Positions 4,080-27,719 of a stretch of DNA of 31,128 nt are shown here, piece after piece. Numbering within the stretch: position 1 is the stretch's first letter; each line of letters opens with the position of its first letter. The position numbers and the translations under genes are program-made. The DNA comes from a bacterium (lineage in GTDB: Bacteria > Patescibacteriota > Minisyncoccia > UBA6257 > Brennerbacteraceae), in the NCBI GenBank assembly GCA_027310425.1, contig DAIDAW010000001.1, positions 1 through 31,128 of the forward strand. Direction: 5' to 3'. Under the pieces are notes generated by a model, which searched no databases, was not told the origin of the DNA, and was given only the letters and a program-made list of their open reading frames with translations.

Positions 4080-6023
4080 TCACAGATAAATCGTATTTTC
4101 GCTGTCGTACAGGGATGAAAGGATGCCTTGGTCCACGCGTTCTATCAGGGATTCCGGAATGTCGTTCAGGAAACGCGAAGGTTCATTCGCGCTGTATTCG
4201 CCGTGGATGAATCGGTGTTGCGCGCAGGTTAGAAACAAGTCATTCTTCGCGCGCGTCATGCCTACGTAGAGCAAGCGGCGTTCTTCTTCGATATCGTCAG
4301 GCGACCGGAGCGAACGTTCGTGCGGCAGGATGCCTTCTTCCACGCCGGCGATGAATACGATGGGGAATTCCAAACCCTTGGCGCTGTGGAGCGTCATAAG
4401 CGTGAGCACGTTGGTTCCGGTTTGCATGCGGTCCGTGTCCTGCACGAGCTGTACGCTTTCCAGGAATTGTCCAAGCGATAATGCCGCGGGTTCGTTCGGG
4501 TACGCGCGCGCGAGGCCGATCAATTCCTGAACGTTGTCCCAGCGTTCCGCTCCCTGCTCGGTTTCCGGGTCGCACCATTCTCGGTAGCCGATCTTGGCAA
4601 GTATGGTTTCGATGAGTTCGGGCAGCGGCATTGTTTTCGCGGAATCGCGGAAAAAGGCCATGGATGCTGCGAATTTCTGCGCTGCCCCCCCGATTTTCAA
4701 AGAGAGTTTCTGTGCTGCCTGTTCGATGTCCCAGCCGGTATTTTTGATCGTTTGGATCGCGCCCGGCCCGATGCCGCGCTTCGGCACATTGATGATGCGT
4801 TCCATACTCACGGAATCTTTCGGGTTGGCGATGCATTTGAGATACGCGAGCGCATCCTGGATTTCCTTGCGTTGCCAGAATCGGTATGCGCCCACGATCT
4901 GATATGGGATGGCGCGTTCCATGCAAAGCTCTTCAAAGACGCGCGATTGCACGTTCGTGCGAAACAGCACTGCGCAATCGCCCAGCGCGCATCCCTGTTT
5001 CAATTTTTCCGCGATGCGTTCCATGATCCACCACGCTTCCATGCGTTCGTCCGCCAGGCGCGCCACGACGATTTGGTTGCCGCCCGCATGTTCCGTGAAC
5101 AGGCGTTTCTCCGTGCGGTATGCGTTTTGCGCAATGACGCCGTGGCTTGCATCCAAAATCGTCTGGGTTGAACGGTAATTCTGTTCCAGAAAAAACACGC
5201 GTGTGCCCGGCCACTCCTGTTCGAAGCGGAGCAGGTGCGTGAAGTCCGCGCAGCGGAATGAATAAATGGATTGCCAGTCGTCTCCGACTACGCAGATGTT
5301 TGTGTGTGCGCGCGCGATGAGTTTCACGAGCGCGTACTGGGGAGAGTTGGTGTCCTGAAATTCGTCGATGAGGAAATAGCGGAACCTGCTTTGCAGGTTT
5401 GCCAGAATGTCCGGATGGTTTTTTGCAAGCGAGAGCGCGTGAAGGATAATGTTGTCGAAATCAACGGCATTTTTCTGTTTCAGGAGCGATTCGTATGTGT
5501 CGAACGCCTGCCGGAGCGTTTGTGGCACCGCTTCTATTCCTTGCTCGACGATTTCGCGGCCGTTCTTGATCCGGGAGATTTTCGAAAGTACGCGCGCGGC
5601 CGCATCCGATTGTCCGGTTTCTCCTCCTCCTGATTGCAGGGCATGGCGCATTAGAGTAAGCGATTCCGATTCGTCGTAGATGCTGAGCGGCAGGGAAAAA
5701 CCGAGCGTCGCGCAATGTTTTTTGAGAATGGAAAGCGCGAATTTATGGAATGTCCCCATGAATGGCAGGTTTGTTTCTCCGCCGAGCAGGTTGAGGATCC
5801 TGCGTTTCATTTCATCAGCTGCCTTATTGGTAAATGTCAGGCATACGATGGAATGCGCAGGAACTCCCGAGGCAACGAGATATGCGACTTTATGGGTAAG
5901 AGTTTTTGTTTTTCCCGATCCTGCGCCTGCGACAATCAAAACAGGACCATCTGTCGCAAGGACCGCCTGTTCCTGTCTTTTATTGAGACCCTCTAAAATT
6001 CTTGATTTTGCTTCGGGATTCAT
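4080..6023 (-). CDS. pcrA: UvrD/PcrA family SF1 DNA helicase
   Basis: AGAGSGKTK Walker A, TFTNKAA, DEFQD, VGDDWQSIY, LEQNYRST, TLHSAKGLEF, EERRLLYVGMTRA. Start moved from GTG 6065 to ATG 6023, because TGATATACT (6031-6039) sits 7 nt upstream of that ATG. Confidence 0.95.
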   Translation of the reverse strand: MNPEAKSRILEGLNKRQEQAVLATDGPVLIVAGAGSGKTKTLTHKVAYLVASGVPAHSIVCLTFTNKAADEMKRRILNLLGGETNLPFMGTFHKFALSILKKHCATLGFSLPLSIYDESESLTLMRHALQSGGGETGQSDAAARVLSKISRIKNGREIVEQGIEAVPQTLRQAFDTYESLLKQKNAVDFDNIILHALSLAKNHPDILANLQSRFRYFLIDEFQDTNSPQYALVKLIARAHTNICVVGDDWQSIYSFRCADFTHLLRFEQEWPGTRVFFLEQNYRSTQTILDASHGVIAQNAYRTEKRLFTEHAGGNQIVVARLADERMEAWWIMERIAEKLKQGCALGDCAVLFRTNVQSRVFEELCMERAIPYQIVGAYRFWQRKEIQDALAYLKCIANPKDSVSMERIINVPKRGIGPGAIQTIKNTGWDIEQAAQKLSLKIGGAAQKFAASMAFFRDSAKTMPLPELIETILAKIGYREWCDPETEQGAERWDNVQELIGLARAYPNEPAALSLGQFLESVQLVQDTDRMQTGTNVLTLMTLHSAKGLEFPIVFIAGVEEGILPHERSLRSPDDIEEERRLLYVGMTRAKNDLFLTCAQHRFIHGEYSANEPSRFLNDIPESLIERVDQGILSSLYDSENTIYL

Positions 6024-14827: not shown

Positions 14828-14856
14828 AGTATACATCGCGCAGGCTGCTCTGTCAA
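14828..14856 (-). promoter_or_regulatory. Consensus sigma70 promoter of nusA
   Basis: Minus strand TTGACA (14856-14851), 17 bp, TATACT (14833-14828). Confidence 0.85.
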
Positions 14857-14863
14857 ATGCCTG

Positions 14864-14900
14864 AAAAAAGCAGCAGCTGCATCATATTGATGCAGCTGCT
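14864..14900 (-). terminator. Intrinsic terminator of the 75-aa membrane gene
   Basis: 13-bp perfect hairpin AGCAGCTGCATCA-TAT-TGATGCAGCTGCT, with a T6 tract shortly after it on the minus strand (A6 at 14864-14869). Confidence 0.8.
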
Positions 14901-14910
14901 TGGTTATTGA

Positions 14911-15138
14911 TTACGGCAAAGATAAGAATAGGACCATGAGAATGCTTGTTCCTAAAATAACAGATCCTGTAAGGCCTATTCCGAAGACATCTTTGGCGAT
15001 TTGCCGACTCCATCCCCATTCTCGACGTTCGGTAATGAACTGAAGCGCAAGCGCGCCTACAAACATTATAAACAATGAAGCGAAGAACGGGATGATCAGT
15101 AGCATCAGAACGATGGCTGCTGAATCTCTGGTATACAT
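14911..15138 (-). CDS. Small membrane protein with two TM helices (75 aa)
   Basis: AAGGAGG Shine-Dalgarno about 5 nt upstream of the ATG, two hydrophobic segments, own terminator. Confidence 0.7.
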   Translation of the reverse strand: MYTRDSAAIVLMLLIIPFFASLFIMFVGALALQFITERREWGWSRQIAKDVFGIGLTGSVILGTSILMVLFLSLP

Positions 15139-15262
15139 ACCTGCCTCCTTCGGCGATTTGATTGCTCTATGAAATCAAAAAACGCGTTACGCGTCAAGCG
15201 CTGGACTGATGCGTGAAAATCCTGTATGCTGGCTACCACATCTTATACAGGAGGCGCCATCT

Positions 15263-15532
15263 ATGAAAAAAATGGCAATCAGTGCGTTGGTTCTGCGCGG
15301 CGAGTCATGCGTCGAGGAAGGTGACATTGCATTGCTCGTACTCATGAGTCTTGACGGTGAACGTCCGGTTGTGCACGTGAGTGAATCCGTTATTGGATTC
15401 GAATCTGTGAAAGCACTCTTCGAGGGGAAGGATCCTGATGACAAAATTCAGATAACGCTTGAGGCGGAATATCCCGAAGATCCCGCGGATTGTTGTTCCA
15501 GCAGCATCAAGCCAATCGCACTATTCATCTGA
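15263..15532 (+). CDS. Small acidic hypothetical protein (89 aa)
   Basis: AGGAGG at 15249-15254, ATG at 15263, terminator directly after the stop. Confidence 0.65.
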   Translation: MKKMAISALVLRGESCVEEGDIALLVLMSLDGERPVVHVSESVIGFESVKALFEGKDPDDKIQITLEAEYPEDPADCCSSSIKPIALFI

Positions 15533-15534
15533 CA

Positions 15535-15558
15535 GAAAACCGCCGTATGGCGGTTTTC
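15535..15558 (+). terminator. Intrinsic terminator
   Basis: GAAAACCGCC-GTAT-GGCGGTTTTC followed by ACTTTTT. Confidence 0.8.
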
Positions 15559-15582
15559 ACTTTTTCCTACATATGCGATGCC

Positions 15583-15611
15583 TTGTAATTATATAGATTA
15601 TATGGTATAAT
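15583..15611 (+). promoter_or_regulatory. Promoter of candidate ncRNA-1
   Basis: TTGTAA (15583-15588), 17 bp, TG-G-TATAAT (-10 at 15606-15611). Confidence 0.7.
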
Positions 15612-15617
15612 ATAACT

Positions 15618-15739
15618 ATACGGTGAGGAGGCAAGGAGAAAACGGCGGCTATGAGCCGCGGACGCCATTGGGCGCAATAAAAATCCTCCCCTCCTCACCA
15701 TTCTAAATATAGAGGCGTTGCCATAAGCGGCGCCTTTTT
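15618..15739 (+). ncRNA. Candidate structured small RNA-1 (~120 nt), unknown class
   Basis: Ends pair: GGTGAGGAGG (15622-15631) with CCTCCTCACC (15690-15699), extended by GGAG/CTCC after a CAA bulge. A-rich internal loop, two apical hairpins, own promoter and terminator. Confidence 0.6.
15713..15739 (+). terminator. Terminator of ncRNA-1
   Basis: AGGCGTTGC-CATAA-GCGGCGCCT-TTTT; two G-U pairs favour the plus strand. Confidence 0.7.
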
Positions 15740-15750
15740 ATTGCACTCAC

Positions 15751-15778
15751 TTGACTTTTCTAGAATTAGTGCTATAAT
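15751..15778 (+). promoter_or_regulatory. Promoter of candidate ncRNA-2
   Basis: TTGACT (15751-15756), 16 bp, TG-C-TATAAT (-10 at 15773-15778). Confidence 0.8.
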
Positions 15779-15783
15779 ATACC

Positions 15784-16172
15784 TATCGTTCTTTCGATAG
15801 TCGGAAGGTTCTGAACAGATTATGTACGTAGTTTGTTCGGAGCCCTCCGGCACACCTTTTTTCCGGAGAGCAAATTCCGCTTCCCGGTGAAGACCGGGAA
15901 CTTATTGATAACGGGCCAGCGCATTTTCCATTCGCACAATCAGGTGCGCGCGCTGAATCTCCTAAGGCGTTTTCTGTGATTCGGTCGCTCCGAACACGAA
16001 ACTCTTCGCCTTTCCGTTATCGATCAATTTTTCGCGCGAATTCCGGAAATCCGCGCAAGGGAAAGTTGGGAGAACTTTCCAAGACCTGTGCCGCCAAGCC
16101 TTATGGCGCGGCGGCACAGGGGCAATCTGTTCTTTATACTATATATCGCCCAGCAATTGCTGGGCGTTTTTT
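15784..16172 (+). ncRNA. Candidate large structured RNA-2 (~390 nt), unknown class
   Basis: 23-bp 5' hairpin (15800-15851, one mismatch, five G-U pairs); TTCCCGGT-GAAG-ACCGGGAA hairpin; 11-bp long-range helix 15904-15914/16014-16024; hairpins at ~16062-16082 and 16085-16120; strong promoter and terminator; no credible ORF. Confidence 0.65.
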
Positions 16173-16491
16173 ATTTGCCAAACCGTGACAATCAATGGTA
16201 TATTTACCTTGGCAACAGGTTGCGCAAGCGCATGGTGCTCCTGGCAGCTTCCTTCGCTGCCAACTCCTTTCGTCTACTTGCTCAATGTTCTGCGTTTGCG
16301 CGAGCCGAGCTTTGCCTGTTGCCAGTTCTTTTTCGTCCGATTGGACGCTTATATTAAAAGGCGCGAGCTGATGCCCGCGCCTTTTCCCGTTTTTATAAAA
16401 AGGGGCCGCCATTGCGCGGCCCCATACGATTCTGTGCAAAGAACTGGTGTTCTGCGCCAGAGTGAGCTGAGGCACCCTGGCGCAGAACACC
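16140..16491 (-). ncRNA. Candidate large structured RNA-3 (~350 nt), unknown class
   Basis: 19-bp 5' hairpin (16446-16491); 10-bp long-range helices 16438-16447/16322-16331 and 16315-16324/16210-16219 enclosing several GC-rich hairpins; G-U pairs and A-rich loops favour the minus strand. Confidence 0.6.
16147..16172. terminator. Hairpin terminator shared by converging ncRNA-2 and ncRNA-3
   Basis: CGCCCAGC-AATT-GCTGGGCG followed by T6 on the plus strand; only an AT-rich tail on the minus strand, so weaker in that direction. Confidence 0.7.
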
Positions 16492-16494
16492 GGC

Positions 16495-16522
16495 ATCGTA
16501 GCACGGCAAGGATTTTTTGCAA
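16495..16522 (-). promoter_or_regulatory. Promoter of candidate ncRNA-3
   Basis: Minus strand TTGCAA (16522-16517), 16 bp, TG-C-TACGAT (-10 at 16500-16495). Confidence 0.55.
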
Positions 16523-16525
16523 TCG

Positions 16526-19500
16526 TCAAAGCGATGCGCTATTTTGTGCGCGCGGCGTGCCCAAAATCTGATTTTGGCCCGCGTCAAGACCATTGATGGT
16601 CGTGCCATTATTCGTTTGCCAGTTCGCAGCGAGGTTCCCCGGCGCATGCGCGTCAACGCGTTCCATGCTTGCGTTTGTTGCGTTATCTCCGGCAAACCAG
16701 CCGGCTGTCGCATCGACTTCATCAACAGTGTTGTCATGCGCATCAACAAGAAGCAGGCGTTCGCCGTTGTTGTTCAGCGCGCCGGCATATATCAAATCAG
16801 CAGGAATATCGGAAATGGTCGTATCATTCGTGCGTTCAAGCAGGAAATAGCCGTGCGTGTCGATAGATCCGGTAAGCGCGATATCGAGCGTTGCAGACGC
16901 ATTCGTGAGATGCCAGCCGGAAAGATCAACAGGGCTCTCCGAAGCATTGTACAGTTCCATCCATTCGTCATACGCAGATGTTTGCGTTCCCATCCACGCG
17001 ATTTCGTTCATGACAACCGATGAACCTGAGATCGGTTGCGGTTCAGAAGTCGGTTGCGGAGATGGGCTTGGCAACGCAAGCGGCGAATATACGGGCGAGA
17101 AATGCCACTGACGCGCATCGATCTGGCGCAGGTACAGGCCGGAACTCGGGCCTGCGTCGTATACGGACATGCTCGTTGTCAGATAATCGTTTGATGTGAT
17201 GAGCGCCGTGTCTTTGGGAATGCTCCAAATCGGCAGACGCACGATCCAAGAACTTTGTTCCGGGAACTGTTTTTGCGCGAGTTCGTTCGGGTTGATTGCC
17301 GTTGTGCTGAATCCGGAAATCGAGCATACGCCGTTGATGGGATAGCGAAATCCCGGTCTGCCGGAAAACGACGAGTTCCAGTCGCACGTGTAGTATTGCA
17401 CCGGCACGAGATTATTCTGGAAATTTTCCAGAAATCCCTCGGCGCCGATTGTGATGTCATAGTTATAGATGAAATCAGCAGTGCTGTTCAGATGAAAGCG
17501 TAATTCGTAACCGTCCGTGCTCCACGAATCCGGAGTTTGAGCAAGCGGCAGCGAATACAGGAATTCAATGCTCCATGCGCCGTTTGGTTCCGGACCCCAG
17601 CGCAGATTTTGCAGATTGGGAATCGGATGCGGTGTGGGATAAACCATCTGAGGAGACGAGGCACTCAGGAATGAGCCGAAATAACGCGTTTGATCGGGAA
17701 TAGGCGTGTCATTGGCGTAGAGCGGCCAGTATGCAAGCGCAAGAAAATCATTTGTGCCGATTTCCCTGCCGAGTGTTTGTTCGAAATGGCTGCGCGTGAT
17801 GCCTGAAGGCGCGTCTGCCTGAAGCCAATTGCTCGTGGAAAGCCGCAGCTGCGTGGGATGAACCACGATGTGCTTTGGGAATTCAGCGCTCTGGCTGTCA
17901 AATGTTCCTTGCCATTCCCAGGTTGTTTCCGAAGGACCATAGATGGGGTTGATCGTGTCTACGAATATACCGGTTTGTCTGGGAATGCTGTAGCGCGGCA
18001 TAATGGTATTGCCGCCTTCTGGTTTTGATTTTGCGGTGAGCGCCAGATCCGTATTCCACGCGGCGACAATCGTGTGGTAATCGTTGTTCGGCAAAAACGT
18101 TTGCGCGTCGAACTGAATCGTGAAAATGCCGCCCGCATCCGATGCCATGCTCGTGTCAAAATACCACGCGACATTGGTGAAGAAATCATTGCGGGATTGC
18201 TGAATCCACGGCGTTGGAGCAGGAGCCGGAGAGGGTGTCGGGAGAATGGTCGGCTCGATCGTCGGCGTAGGCTCAATCGTCGGTTTTGAGGAAGGAGCCG
18301 GTGTTGGTTCGGGCGAGAGGGTCGGTTCGGGAATCGGCGTTGGGCTTGAATTGGAAAATGCGAATGGCGCAGGATTGGTTGGAGGAACATTCGGCGCCTG
18401 TACATTGAGGAATTGCAAAAATTGCTGCGGAGTCGGGGCAGGAGCGTCGGTCTCAAGGAAAAAATTCATGAGCGGAAGCGCTGCGTTTATGTTGCGGATT
18501 TCGTCTTGCGTTGGCGGATTCGCATGTTCCTTTGCAGGATTCGGCAGAATCAGAAAAAGCGGCGGAGAGCTTGGGATTTGACTTGATGGTGTTGTTTCCA
18601 GCGCTTGCTGGTTCGCATTGTAGACAAATACCCGGGCGAATGTGTCCTGCAACGATTGCTGCTGTGTTTGAATCCATTGCAAGATCGAATCAAGCCAGGA
18701 TTGATGCTGTTGGATTTGGTGTTGTTGGGCTTCTTGGAGAAATAATGCAAGTACGCCAGCGCCATGTTGTACTGCTTTCGGGCCAAGACGAGACCAGTAA
18801 TCCTTGTTGATTAGAATGTTGTCTATTGTTGTATCAAAAATATTTCTAGTAATAAGTCCTCCATTTAAAGATTTATTCAATACCAAATGATAATCTCCGT
18901 CGTTATCCTTATCTATCCCATAATAGAATTCACCAATTTTTTCATACATAAGTGGCTCGGGCAGATTATATCCGCTTTGTATGCCGATTGTATCTTTGCT
19001 GTAAAAACCTTTGTTTGAGTAATTCGCAATCGAATCGAAATACTGATTCAAGTTTGCAAATACAACCGGTTGCTTGCTTTGCATATACGTTGCGAACTGC
19101 GTATCGGGATTGGAGAGATTGAATTGCGCTGTCCATTGTTCATACGGGCTGCCTGTTGCATGGCCGTTGTTGCGTGTATGGTCAGGCACGGATGCGTCTT
19201 CGATGAGATGCAGGATATGGCCCAGGGCAAACATCGCTTTTTCTTTGTTCGCGTTTGTCCAGTAGTCAAGCGCGGCATTCCAGGAATAATCGCTTTCCGT
19301 GCTGATCGCGAGCTTTTTCTGCTGGATTGAATCAAGAATTGACGCGATGAGCCCCGCGACTTTGTATGTCGGTTCGTTTTGTTTCGCGCTGTCCTGCGCC
19401 CAGAGCTTTGACGATTCATGCGATGTGCCGATATTCAGTTCCGCGCCAGTGCGCGTGTCGTACGTATAGCCCCGGTTGTATATGGGATCGTAGAAATGAT

Positions 19501-19732
19501 GCAGCCAGCGCGGAGAATCGTCTTCCCTGCGCGAGCCATCGATCAAATACGCTCCCAATTCTTTTGGAAATTGTTCTGCATGTGTTTGGTTATAGAGTTT
19601 GATGATTTCTTGAGTCAAAAACGCATGCGTTTCATAGTCATACGCATGCGTTTGCGAGATATTCCAAAATGTTGTTGCGAAAACAATGAGTGCTGGGATC
19701 AACGAAAGCTTCACAAGCTTTCTATTTTCCAT
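16526..19732 (-). CDS. Secreted multidomain protein (1068 aa): Zn-dependent phospholipase C/S1-P1 nuclease-like N-domain, Pro-rich stalk, unknown middle domain, C-terminal lamin-tail domain
   Basis: Signal peptide then AYDYETHAFLT, WLHHFYDP, LGHILHLIEDASVPDH, SPYE (tri-zinc helical hydrolase pattern); PEPT/PSP repeats; VVMNEIAWMGT..DEWMELYN..LNNNGE is lamin-tail-like. Confidence 0.8.
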   Translation of the reverse strand: MENRKLVKLSLIPALIVFATTFWNISQTHAYDYETHAFLTQEIIKLYNQTHAEQFPKELGAYLIDGSRREDDSPRWLHHFYDPIYNRGYTYDTRTGAELNIGTSHESSKLWAQDSAKQNEPTYKVAGLIASILDSIQQKKLAISTESDYSWNAALDYWTNANKEKAMFALGHILHLIEDASVPDHTRNNGHATGSPYEQWTAQFNLSNPDTQFATYMQSKQPVVFANLNQYFDSIANYSNKGFYSKDTIGIQSGYNLPEPLMYEKIGEFYYGIDKDNDGDYHLVLNKSLNGGLITRNIFDTTIDNILINKDYWSRLGPKAVQHGAGVLALFLQEAQQHQIQQHQSWLDSILQWIQTQQQSLQDTFARVFVYNANQQALETTPSSQIPSSPPLFLILPNPAKEHANPPTQDEIRNINAALPLMNFFLETDAPAPTPQQFLQFLNVQAPNVPPTNPAPFAFSNSSPTPIPEPTLSPEPTPAPSSKPTIEPTPTIEPTILPTPSPAPAPTPWIQQSRNDFFTNVAWYFDTSMASDAGGIFTIQFDAQTFLPNNDYHTIVAAWNTDLALTAKSKPEGGNTIMPRYSIPRQTGIFVDTINPIYGPSETTWEWQGTFDSQSAEFPKHIVVHPTQLRLSTSNWLQADAPSGITRSHFEQTLGREIGTNDFLALAYWPLYANDTPIPDQTRYFGSFLSASSPQMVYPTPHPIPNLQNLRWGPEPNGAWSIEFLYSLPLAQTPDSWSTDGYELRFHLNSTADFIYNYDITIGAEGFLENFQNNLVPVQYYTCDWNSSFSGRPGFRYPINGVCSISGFSTTAINPNELAQKQFPEQSSWIVRLPIWSIPKDTALITSNDYLTTSMSVYDAGPSSGLYLRQIDARQWHFSPVYSPLALPSPSPQPTSEPQPISGSSVVMNEIAWMGTQTSAYDEWMELYNASESPVDLSGWHLTNASATLDIALTGSIDTHGYFLLERTNDTTISDIPADLIYAGALNNNGERLLLVDAHDNTVDEVDATAGWFAGDNATNASMERVDAHAPGNLAANWQTNNGTTINGLDAGQNQILGTPRAQNSASL

Positions 19733-20343
19733 ACATTTGAATAAGTATTGAATCTTAAAAATAATGAATAATCTGCAACACCATCTTTATTCAAAAGTAC
19801 ATAGACAGAACTGTTCTTACCAAAATTTTGATTTATAGATGGTTTCATTTTTTCTACAGTTGAGATTACTGTAGAAATTTCTCCTTTTCTTTGTTTATCG
19901 TTTAATCCATCGATCCATTCCTGGCGCGTAAGATAATATGGGCTTTGCTCGTTGGTGTTGAGCATAAAATACTGGGCAGCTTGTTCCATATCTCCCGTCT
20001 TAAGTGCTGCAAGAAACAGCTGGATGGTTTCTTCCGGAGTTTTTCCTCCCGTGATATCGTTGGCAAGCGCTTGTTTTTGTTCTTCAGCGCGTTGGAGCGC
20101 GATGCGGTCTGTTTCGGAGTTTTCCTTGGCTTGCTGCGGGCTGATGGTATTGATGAGCGCGATGGCGAACATCGCAGCAATGAAAATCACGAATAAGGCG
20201 ATTGCGTAGCGGTACCATGATCGTTTTCCGAACGCGTCCAAACGCGCCGGAAAACGGAATTTCCGGATATTCTGCCTTTCGCTGGGTTTGTTTTGCGCGT
20301 GTTGATCCATGCCAAGAAAGGGCTTGGTATGATTTTCCGCCAC
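19711..20343 (-). CDS. Membrane-anchored hypothetical protein with an NTF2/DUF4878-like periplasmic domain
   Basis: One TM helix, then GGKTPEETIQLFLAALKTGDMEQAAQYF...WKIESL. Its 3' end overlaps the downstream gene by 22 nt. Start uncertain. Confidence 0.75.
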   Translation of the reverse strand: MAENHTKPFLGMDQHAQNKPSERQNIRKFRFPARLDAFGKRSWYRYAIALFVIFIAAMFAIALINTISPQQAKENSETDRIALQRAEEQKQALANDITGGKTPEETIQLFLAALKTGDMEQAAQYFMLNTNEQSPYYLTRQEWIDGLNDKQRKGEISTVISTVEKMKPSINQNFGKNSSVYVLLNKDGVADYSLFLRFNTYSNVWKIESL

Positions 20344-20346
20344 CGA

Positions 20347-20670
20347 CTACAAGATTTGCGCGATGACAAGCGCGATGCCTTTGCTGATGAGTACGATGCC
20401 GAATCCGATTGCGGCGTACACGATAATCATCATTGCCTGATTGAATTTTTCCGGTTTTCCTTCGGAAGTCAAAAGCACGAACGCGGCATAGAGCACGACC
20501 GCGGTAAGGATGGGCACGCTGATTGCGATGAGAAAATTGATTACGCGGTCAAGCAAGCCGCCGATCGTATTCACTTTGAGCGGATTCTCGAACGTGAGCG
20601 CGCCTGCTTGCTGCGTGGATGCGATCGCGATTGCAGCGAGCGCCAGGAAAAGGATAATGCGTTTTGTCAT
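20347..20670 (-). CDS. TrbC/VirB2-like pilin (CPR type)
   Basis: Signal peptide, FENPL motif, two hydrophobic helices separated by TSEGKPEKFNQA. Start set at ATG 20670 below a TTGCCC-16-TACACT promoter. Confidence 0.75.
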   Translation of the reverse strand: MTKRIILFLALAAIAIASTQQAGALTFENPLKVNTIGGLLDRVINFLIAISVPILTAVVLYAAFVLLTSEGKPEKFNQAMMIIVYAAIGFGIVLISKGIALVIAQIL

Positions 20671-20720
20671 AGTACGGATATAGTGTATATGCTTTGCCCC
20701 GGAGGGCAAGAGTGCATAAC

Positions 20721-21107
20721 TTAGCACGAAATTTTATTCCAAAACAGCACGGATCCTTTTGCAAAGAAATTCAAGACCGTGTTGAGAATTACCCATGCGG
20801 AGAGCATAATCGCGAACCCGATGACTCCGTTCGTCAGCTGTTTCATCGCATCTCCGAACGCATGCGGGTTGCCCTTGGAAGCGTAGAGGCTCAATCCCGC
20901 AAGGATCGTCACAAGCGTTACCATAATAAATCCGAGCGCGATGATAAAGTTGACGACTGCCTGCACGGTGGCGAGGAGCGCGCACAGGTTGCAGGATCCG
21001 ATGACTGCTGGGTTGCATTGCACGAGCGCAGCCGATGCGCCATGCAGCGGTACGAAAAGAAACGAGAGAATCGCAATCGCGCCGAAAAGCGCTGGGATGA
21101 TCTTCAT
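20721..21107 (-). CDS. TrbC/VirB2-like pilin (CPR type, Cys-containing N-terminus)
   Basis: Signal peptide, LVQC..CNLCALL, two hydrophobic helices separated by SKGNP, GFAIMLSAWVILNT. Confidence 0.75.
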   Translation of the reverse strand: MKIIPALFGAIAILSFLFVPLHGASAALVQCNPAVIGSCNLCALLATVQAVVNFIIALGFIMVTLVTILAGLSLYASKGNPHAFGDAMKQLTNGVIGFAIMLSAWVILNTVLNFFAKGSVLFWNKISC

Positions 21108-27648: not shown

Positions 27649-27719
27649 GCGGGTATCGTATAGTGGCAATACCCCAGTTTTCCAAACTGGCGCCGGGGGT
27701 TCGATTCCCCCTACCCGCT
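27649..27719 (+). tRNA. tRNA-Gly (anticodon TCC), CCA not encoded
   Basis: GCGGGTA/TACCCGC acceptor stem, CCAGT-TTTCCAA-ACTGG anticodon arm, GGTTCGATTCC T-arm; TG-C-TATAAT promoter at 27632-27640. Confidence 0.95.

Follow-up and report, generated by a model that had tools for sequence, protein, structure and literature searches.

What is encoded in a gap of about 1 kb that holds no protein gene and is packed with hairpins (shuffle z −5 to −10)? The gap spans positions 15533-16525 of a 31,128-nt stretch of DNA, referred to below as the window, which is contig C11 of a Brennerbacteraceae genome within the candidate phyla radiation (CPR)/Parcubacteria; the genome was recovered from a mine-drainage metagenome and comprises 548 kb in 84 contigs, with an estimated completeness of 91%. 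A sequence-only reading of the window had proposed an undescribed noncoding RNA (ncRNA) system with two transcripts on the plus strand and a third running toward them on the minus strand. Our analyses favor a different arrangement, in which the gap holds three independent, co-oriented candidate ncRNA genes on the plus strand (about 128, 390, and 185 nt; RNA-1, RNA-2, and RNA-3′), each with its own extended −10 sigma-70 promoter and Rho-independent terminator, within a 5.5-kb accessory insertion that is unique to the lineage and has no detectable relatives. We assign this reading a probability of roughly 0.6. The promoter motifs, the terminators, the strong folds, the lack of a coding signal, and the absence from relatives are direct observations.

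The units consist of the following elements, with helices as predicted by folding:

15583-15611, plus strand: promoter P1, TTGTAA-17-TGgTATAAT, extended −10, 10/12 with TG
15618-15745, plus strand: RNA-1, about 128 nt
15622-15631/15690-15699: closing stem of RNA-1, followed by inner stem 15634-15637/15684-15687 and two small apical hairpins
15711-15737, plus strand: terminator of RNA-1, then U5
15751-15778, plus strand: promoter P2, TTGACT-16-TGcTATAAT, extended −10, 11/12 with TG
15785-16172, plus strand: RNA-2, about 390 nt
15800-15851: 5′ hairpin of RNA-2, 23 bp with six G-U pairs
15865-15878/16121-16135: long-range helix of RNA-2, enclosing a multi-branch core
15881-15900 (hairpin), 15904-16024 (domain, with a 12-bp closing helix 15904-15915/16013-16024), and 16034-16056, 16060-16080, and 16085-16120 (hairpins): core of RNA-2
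16147-16166, plus strand: terminator of RNA-2, then U6
16175-16204, plus strand: promoter P3, TTGCCA-18-TGgTATATT, extended −10, 10/12 with TG
16211-16395, plus strand: RNA-3′, about 185 nt, predicted to be driven by P3
16209-16220/16314-16325: closing stem of RNA-3′, followed by helix 16222-16232/16291-16301 with a plus-strand G-U pair, hairpin 16242-16262, and small hairpin 16334-16347
16263-16290: CU-rich single strand of RNA-3′, containing CUCCUUUC
16356-16385, bidirectional: terminator of RNA-3′, on the plus strand then U4..U5

We counted the strict promoter motif TTGNNN-N13-15-TGNTATAWT on both strands of the 548-kb genome and found 17 copies, none of them inside the 77% of the sequence that is called as coding. 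Three of the 17 are the tandem P1, P2, and P3, and three such motifs within 1 kb on one strand are not explicable by chance. The element TGNTATAAT was likewise intergenic in 34 of its 38 occurrences in the genome. Both plus-strand promoters of the sequence-only reading, P1 and P2, are retained in our map, to which P3 is an addition; the third promoter proposed there, on the minus strand at 16522-16495 (TTGCAA-16-TACGAT), scores 8/12 and falls below the scan threshold. About 7 nt after each of the three plus-strand promoters a structured body starts, which then ends in a plus-strand terminator, and the distance from a terminator to the next −35 box is less than 10 nt in each case. As is typical of stand-alone small RNA (sRNA) genes, all three plus-strand units thus have a promoter and a same-strand Rho-independent terminator of their own. 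Terminator-like hairpins, noted earlier at the end of each unit, are enriched, with 11 found in the gap against 2.7 ± 2.1 in shuffled sequences.

The predicted folds are strong. The minimum free energy (MFE) is −60.6 kcal/mol for RNA-1 (z −6.3 against dinucleotide shuffles; 15616-15746), −174.7 kcal/mol for RNA-2 (z −10.05; 15784-16176), and −77 kcal/mol for RNA-3′ (z −4.9; 16208-16398), in agreement with the dense helices that had been described downstream of P1 and P2, and windows from the gap rank within the top 40 of 5,365 genome windows by GC-corrected folding energy. For RNA-2, the centroid coincides with the MFE structure; 11 of its approximately 127 predicted pairs are G-U, six of them in the 5′ hairpin, and these would be A·C on the opposite strand. 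In the terminator of RNA-3′, position 16375 is C in the window and T in the contigs from each of the four runs of the source sample. The change from C to T converts an A·C mismatch of the terminator stem to A-U and completes the stem; the C reflects either a minor variant or an error in the assembly.

Does any part of the gap encode protein? Per-codon log-odds of the overlapping open reading frames (ORFs; 15976-16188, 16134-16529, 16185-16571, and others) ranged from −0.10 to −0.27, with means of −0.18 for shadow ORFs and +0.26 for the real long genes of the genome as references; the first two, at which the sequence-only reading had allowed for codon-level selection, also scored like shadow ORFs. 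No gene is called in the gap in public assemblies, including four independent contigs of the sample, and no protein on record resembles a gap ORF. Strain variants were studied in Logan contigs of the four DNA runs of the one source sample, from which two were obtained as L198 and L199. A 5-nt insertion after 15854, in an unpaired linker, frameshifts ORF 15833-15979; the change of GUA to ACC at 15824-15826, within a tetraloop, removes the start of a 22-codon ORF by turning its ATG to ATA; and the sole strain difference in RNA-1 is one extra C in the C-run of an internal loop (1-nt insertion at 15687). Segregating 5-nt and 1-nt indels argue against coding. Given the codon scores, the non-triplet indels between strains, the loss of an ATG, and the lack of gene calls, we counted the gap as noncoding, in line with the earlier view that it holds no credible ORF; for small ORFs the statement is not absolute.

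It is accordingly improbable that any of the units serves as an mRNA for a very small protein, although the idea has specific candidates: a 9-codon ORF at 15651-15680 in RNA-1 and a 41-codon hydrophobic ORF at 16232-16357 in RNA-3′, the latter perhaps within a type I toxin-like mRNA with a buried start codon. Other copies of the strong promoter drive mRNAs of small proteins (contigs C15, C55, C43, and C1), the 9-codon ORF is preceded by AAGGAG, and the 41-amino-acid (aa) peptide has a grand average of hydropathy of 1.07 and, in the manner of type I toxin mRNAs, an AUG placed in helix 16222-16232. The genuine small-protein mRNAs of this genome, however, carry AAAGGAGG 4-8 nt before the ATG, whereas the 41-codon ORF has no Shine-Dalgarno (SD) sequence and the ATG of the 9-codon ORF lies 12 nt after GGAG, a poor spacing. 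The maximum 19-residue hydropathy of the 41-aa peptide, 1.48, is below the usual transmembrane cut-off, its codon score is shadow-like, and it has neither a Pfam match nor a gene call. Nor is there an overlapping antisense RNA with a credible promoter, as the available one scores 8/12 and the terminators prevent overlap, and the ORFs of RNA-2 are broken in other strains by the 5-nt indel and the ATG-to-ATA change. Assignment to the type I toxin-antitoxin systems was rejected on the same hydropathy, SD, Pfam, and antisense promoter results.

Which strand does the third unit occupy? In the sequence-only reading, RNA-3 was a 350-nt minus-strand RNA running from 16490 to 16140 and converging with RNA-2 on a shared hairpin at 16147-16166. 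The minus strand of 16140-16492 does fold well (z −10.2), hairpins 16491-16446 and 16385-16360 each contain a G-U pair that forms on the minus strand only, and a TG-TACGAT element is present at 16503-16495. Against this, hairpin 16147-16166 has its U-run on the plus strand only, and an RNA started near 16490 would meet two strong terminators on its own strand, at 16423-16402 (with U5) and 16385-16356, and could reach 16140 only by reading through both. Its 8/12 promoter lies at most 35 nt from the stop codon of a 1068-aa gene and overlaps the stop codon region, the better promoter P3 (10/12 with TG) points the opposite way, and the G-U pair of helix 16222-16232/16291-16301 becomes C·A on the minus strand. 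We regard the convergent layout as quite improbable and find its promoter and the 5′ part of the proposed RNA better explained as the 3′ untranslated region and terminators of the 1068-aa gene, which encodes a lamin-tail domain (LTD):

16397-16525, minus strand: putative 3′ untranslated region of the 1068-aa LTD gene, with a 19-bp hairpin at 16491-16446 and then a terminator at 16423-16402 plus U5

On the minus strand, this terminator is followed by the bidirectional hairpin 16385-16356.

To ask whether the units belong to a known family, we searched Rfam 15 (4,227 models) with gathering thresholds for the whole window and with E ≤ 10 for a 1.3-kb region alone. As the sequence-only reading had anticipated, the gap gave no gathering-level match, the sole one in the window being a tRNA at 27649. 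The best sub-threshold matches in the gap, to the trpB motif (31.8 bits; threshold 59), BjrC174 (31.3 bits; threshold 45), and miRNA precursors, are look-alikes of hairpins and terminators. Most likely, then, the units belong to no catalogued RNA family. A transfer-messenger RNA (tmRNA) was found on contig C5 (128.6 bits), and the sole RNase P RNA candidate of the genome at C13:5273-5768 (L004:1501-1996; 496 nt, 40 bits, E 1e-11, gathering score 100), which is probably a divergent form of this RNA that carries large insertions. Both lie outside the window, and the gap units are therefore neither, in line with the sequence-only reading, which had found no hallmarks of the two.

The 6S RNA and the signal recognition particle (SRP) RNA deserve separate mention, since across the whole 91%-complete genome Rfam yields neither 6S (RF00013) nor a small bacterial SRP RNA (RF00169) at E ≤ 10, and strong promoters would suit abundant housekeeping RNAs. 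One could suppose that the gap units are very divergent forms of the two, yet the 1.3-kb region searched alone gave no match to either at the same E value. The 6S RNA is rod-shaped and some 180 nt long, with a large central bubble flanked by a closing and an apical stem, whereas the core of RNA-3′ is Y-shaped, measures only about 117 nt, and has neither the central bubble nor the apical stem. The hallmark of SRP RNA is the domain IV hairpin with its conserved loops, and no such motif was recognized in the units. Housekeeping RNAs would, moreover, not sit in an insertion that relatives do not have, and we consider their presence here very improbable.

The insertion was delimited by synteny, for which the neighboring genes are needed:

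ending at 14856, minus strand: genes of PNPase, an NYN protein, ribosomal protein S15, and NusA
14911-15138, minus strand: o75, tiny orphan gene with a strong GGAGG SD
15209-15532, plus strand: o107, tiny orphan gene upstream of the gap with a strong GGAGG SD
15535-15558, plus strand: intrinsic terminator of o107/o89 (10-bp stem, then a T-run), left edge of the RNA cluster
16526-19732, minus strand: 1068-aa LTD gene, stop codon 16526-16528
within 14857-20346: p210, a 210-aa gene, partner of the 1068-aa gene
20347-21107: two tandem pilin-like genes of the type IV secretion system (PF18895), pilin1 and pilin2, upstream of the 210-aa and 1068-aa LTD genes
beyond the pilin pair: genes of a solute-binding protein and a methyltransferase

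Four genomes of the family (L209, L210, L211, and L213) share the gene order methyltransferase, solute-binding protein, pilin1, pilin2, nusA. Because pilin2 directly abuts nusA in these relatives, we identify 14857-20346, between the two genes, as a lineage-specific insertion of approximately 5.5 kb; it contains p210, the 1068-aa LTD gene, the three RNA cassettes, o107/o89, and o75. The notion that a reduced genome had kept an RNA locus therefore does not hold, and the three RNAs are most likely lineage-specific accessory extras rather than a conserved core system. The NusA of the nearest available relative is only 74% identical, and in the nusA loci compared from genomes and metagenomes the upstream synteny differs. 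The pilin pair next to nusA is kept in relatives.

Little is recognizable among the other genes of the insertion. For o107, the likelier start is the ATG at 15263, which is preceded by AGGAGG and gives an 89-aa gene (o89), in agreement with public gene calls. The protein is alone in its own cluster among 5.8 billion proteins and gave no homologue in a homologue search; a lead from the ESM Atlas, LppP/LprE, is weak. The 1068-aa protein resembles other proteins in the LTD domain only. The flanking orphan proteins had no PADLOC match, and their NCBIfam matches were sub-threshold and far below the cut-off.

The location within an insertion absent from four family relatives, among neighboring genes that are all orphans, raises the question of whether the region is no more than inert cargo, brought in on a horizontally acquired island. 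On that view, its promoters, hairpins, and terminators would be leftovers of a mobile or foreign element, such as its regulatory or replication region, with no present function in the cell, whether transcribed or not. The hypervariability of blocks of the gap between co-existing strains and the lack of reduction in the density of single-nucleotide polymorphisms (SNPs), both described below, are in keeping with such an origin. On the other hand, we found no integrase, transposase, or defense-family match marking the origin of the insertion and no direct repeats flanking it, and the gap had no match in phage and plasmid DNA. Three near-consensus promoters, with hexamers intact in a variable context, and perfect terminators would also decay fast without selection, and the small variants mostly avoid or preserve pairs. 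We therefore judge inert cargo unlikely, though of the alternatives considered here it is the one we take most seriously.

The strain data bear on this point in some detail. The spacer around P1 (15559-15616) is a hypervariable block with seven substitutions and two insertions, none of which falls in the −35, TG, or −10 elements (p ~0.05, an estimate): in variant L199, the hexamers and TG of P1 are intact while nine of the 43 other positions of the block differ. P2 is identical in L198 and L199. The second hypervariable block, 15901-16040, is the entire inner domain of RNA-2, in which a second haplotype has 107 nt replaced by 98 unalignable letters and differs by about 27% in the 33 nt preceding the replacement. 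The two haplotypes are about equally deep at the joint 15933->16041 (15.5 versus 13.7 in run X1 and 33.5 versus 31.8 in run X2). The small variants number seven: four lie in loops or linkers (the three described above for the ORFs and RNA-1, and 16156 A>C in the terminator loop of RNA-2), two keep or create a pair (15787 C>T, which changes C-G to U·G, and 16375), and one breaks a pair.

Several observations weigh against the reading of the gap as three plus-strand ncRNA genes. The pair-breaking variant, 15796 G>A, affects the small first helix of RNA-2, and the excess of structure-compatible variants, six of the seven with about half expected, is only suggestive (p ~0.06, an estimate). SNP density is about 1.1-1.4% in the RNA bodies and about 0.6% in the coding flanks; being no lower, it does not demonstrate purifying selection, and the inner domain of RNA-2 is freely exchanged between strains. 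In each of the three units the plus-strand fold is the more stable one but by 2-5% only, which makes folding energy weak evidence of strand. BLASTN of the gap against 40 relatives detected no similarity, nor did blastn and nhmmer searches against 160 nusA loci, 80 taken from genomes and 80 from metagenomes. Single-sequence covariance models of the RNA-2 core (275 nt, 92 pairs), RNA-3′, and RNA-1, an approach of limited reach, found no homologue in the genomes searched (150 of the order or the 39 nearest relatives). Conservation was thus not supported by any of the three methods. The public sequencing runs holding the locus are the four DNA runs of the one sample, with no RNA run among them. 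Finally, scans for sRNA-target duplexes across all start regions and the neighboring genes gave nothing above shuffled seeds; the neighboring genes were not outliers, save those with generic strong SDs.

Three matches from these searches were inspected and set aside. The sole non-self covariance match at the family level, G001:C44:2998-3091 (E 0.45), looks like coding sequence, and the only other non-self one, G074:C4:19231-19252, is weak (E 0.24, 22 nt, 12 bits). Within the genome, we found no paralogues of the three RNAs, which are not paralogues of each other either; a match on C55 covers only the promoter, shared with a small-protein mRNA there.

At other sites of this genome, copies of the strict extended −10 promoter also precede very stable folds (z −4 to −12), all of them free of ORFs but the one on C2:

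C77:12717-13010 (L100:718-1011), plus strand: promoter with stable fold
C66 from 19674 (L093:675 onward), plus strand: promoter with stable fold
C2:7312 (L095:913 onward), plus strand: promoter with stable fold; the unit carries an SD and an ATG
C44 near 7180, minus strand: promoter with stable fold
C10 from 952, plus strand: promoter with stable fold, ahead of a tRNA
C66 near 402, minus strand: promoter with stable fold

Gathering-level Rfam scans of the C77, C66:19000-22400, and C2 loci returned only one tRNA (C77:12517-12591, minus strand). Some of these loci may be further orphan ncRNA genes.

What might the three RNAs do? Both their transcription and their function we infer from the sequence. 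Of the undescribed ncRNA system proposed at the outset, the part that stands is that these are probably stand-alone structured RNAs of no catalogued family; nothing shows joint action of the three. In the mechanism that we outline, they would be abundant, stable, trans-acting regulatory RNAs, mostly pyrimidine-rich unpaired segments of which would pair with purine-rich ribosome-binding sites and damp translation. For RNA-2 the candidate pairing segments are ACACCUUUUUUCC, AUUUUCCAUU, and AAUCUCCU; for RNA-3′ they are UUCCUUC and ACUCCUUUC. Most predicted single strands of RNA-2 and RNA-3′ are pyrimidine-rich, an exception being the A/U-rich 16136-16146 in RNA-2, and the mRNAs of the genome use strong (A)AAGGAGG ribosome-binding sites; anti-SD action is for these reasons our leading guess. 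CUCCUUUC, at 16264-16271 in RNA-3′, has a computed unpaired probability of 0.82-0.99 and is predicted to offer an accessible pyrimidine-rich motif complementary to ribosome-binding sites. We nevertheless give the mechanism only a low probability, and see a similar chance that RNA-2, with its 390 nt, binds protein or acts as a scaffold.

In the region of C12 at approximately 4740-4800 (L101:3240-3300), the 16S rRNA gene ends in ...GUGGAUGGAAAAUUUCUUU, without the canonical CCUCC anti-SD tail, and its match spans 1,929 nt versus a model of 1,533 positions, which indicates insertions. Despite this 16S end, strong GGAGG sites occur in many mRNAs of the genome, and some of the sites are extended to AAAGGAGGUGAUCC. 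The discrepancy could reflect an intron or insertion at the 3′ end, an rRNA contig assigned to the wrong bin, or a real change.

A bolder proposal concerns RNA-2, which may represent a hitherto undescribed class of ncRNAs that are large (about 390 nt), complex in their fold, highly expressed, and carried on CPR accessory islands. The 5′ hairpin, the long-range helix, and the 3′ hairpins would form a conserved scaffold, and the modular inner domain 15901-16040, swapped between co-existing strains, would serve as a specificity or recognition module, with RNA-1 and RNA-3′ as accessory partners. We think this rather unlikely.

The CPR/Patescibacteria have tiny genomes, and to our knowledge almost nothing is known of their regulatory RNAs. 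If the three RNAs are expressed, the organism would devote much of its strongest transcription to RNAs that are specific to its lineage and change too quickly to be discovered by comparison, and these bacteria would possess a sizeable unseen RNA layer. The locus is an orphan, and its present value is that of a well-delimited candidate for transcriptomics, with predicted ends and strand.

Among known systems, the type I toxin-antitoxin loci, such as bsrG/SR4 and txpA/RatA, differ from the gap, where an SD, a clear transmembrane segment, a credible antisense promoter, and demonstrated overlap between transcripts are all lacking; what they share with it are lineage-specific structured transcripts, a small hydrophobic ORF with its AUG buried in a helix, and transcription that converges at terminators. 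OLE, GOLLD, ROOL, and the raiA motif RNA are large ornate ncRNAs found by comparative genomics, and their classes rest on conservation and covariation observed in many genomes. RNA-2 matches none of their Rfam models, had no relative in our searches, and, unlike them, has its inner domain replaced between strains, but it resembles them in being long, multi-branched, free of ORFs, and placed in an accessory region.

RsaE/RoxS and the tandem LhrC1-5 genes of Listeria are stand-alone trans-acting sRNAs that bind SD regions through C/U-rich unpaired seeds. The gap RNAs are unrelated to them in sequence and in Rfam, are not paralogues of one another, include in RNA-2 (390 nt) a far larger molecule, lack UCCC or CCCC in their apical loops, and have no target above background. 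They are nevertheless like these sRNAs in that every unit combines a sigma-70 promoter with an intrinsic terminator of its own, is free of ORFs, stands in tandem with the others, and is predicted to be transcribed separately. Most of their unpaired segments are pyrimidine-rich as well, including the accessible motif of RNA-3′, and the anti-SD action proposed for them would be like that of the C-rich sRNAs of Firmicutes.

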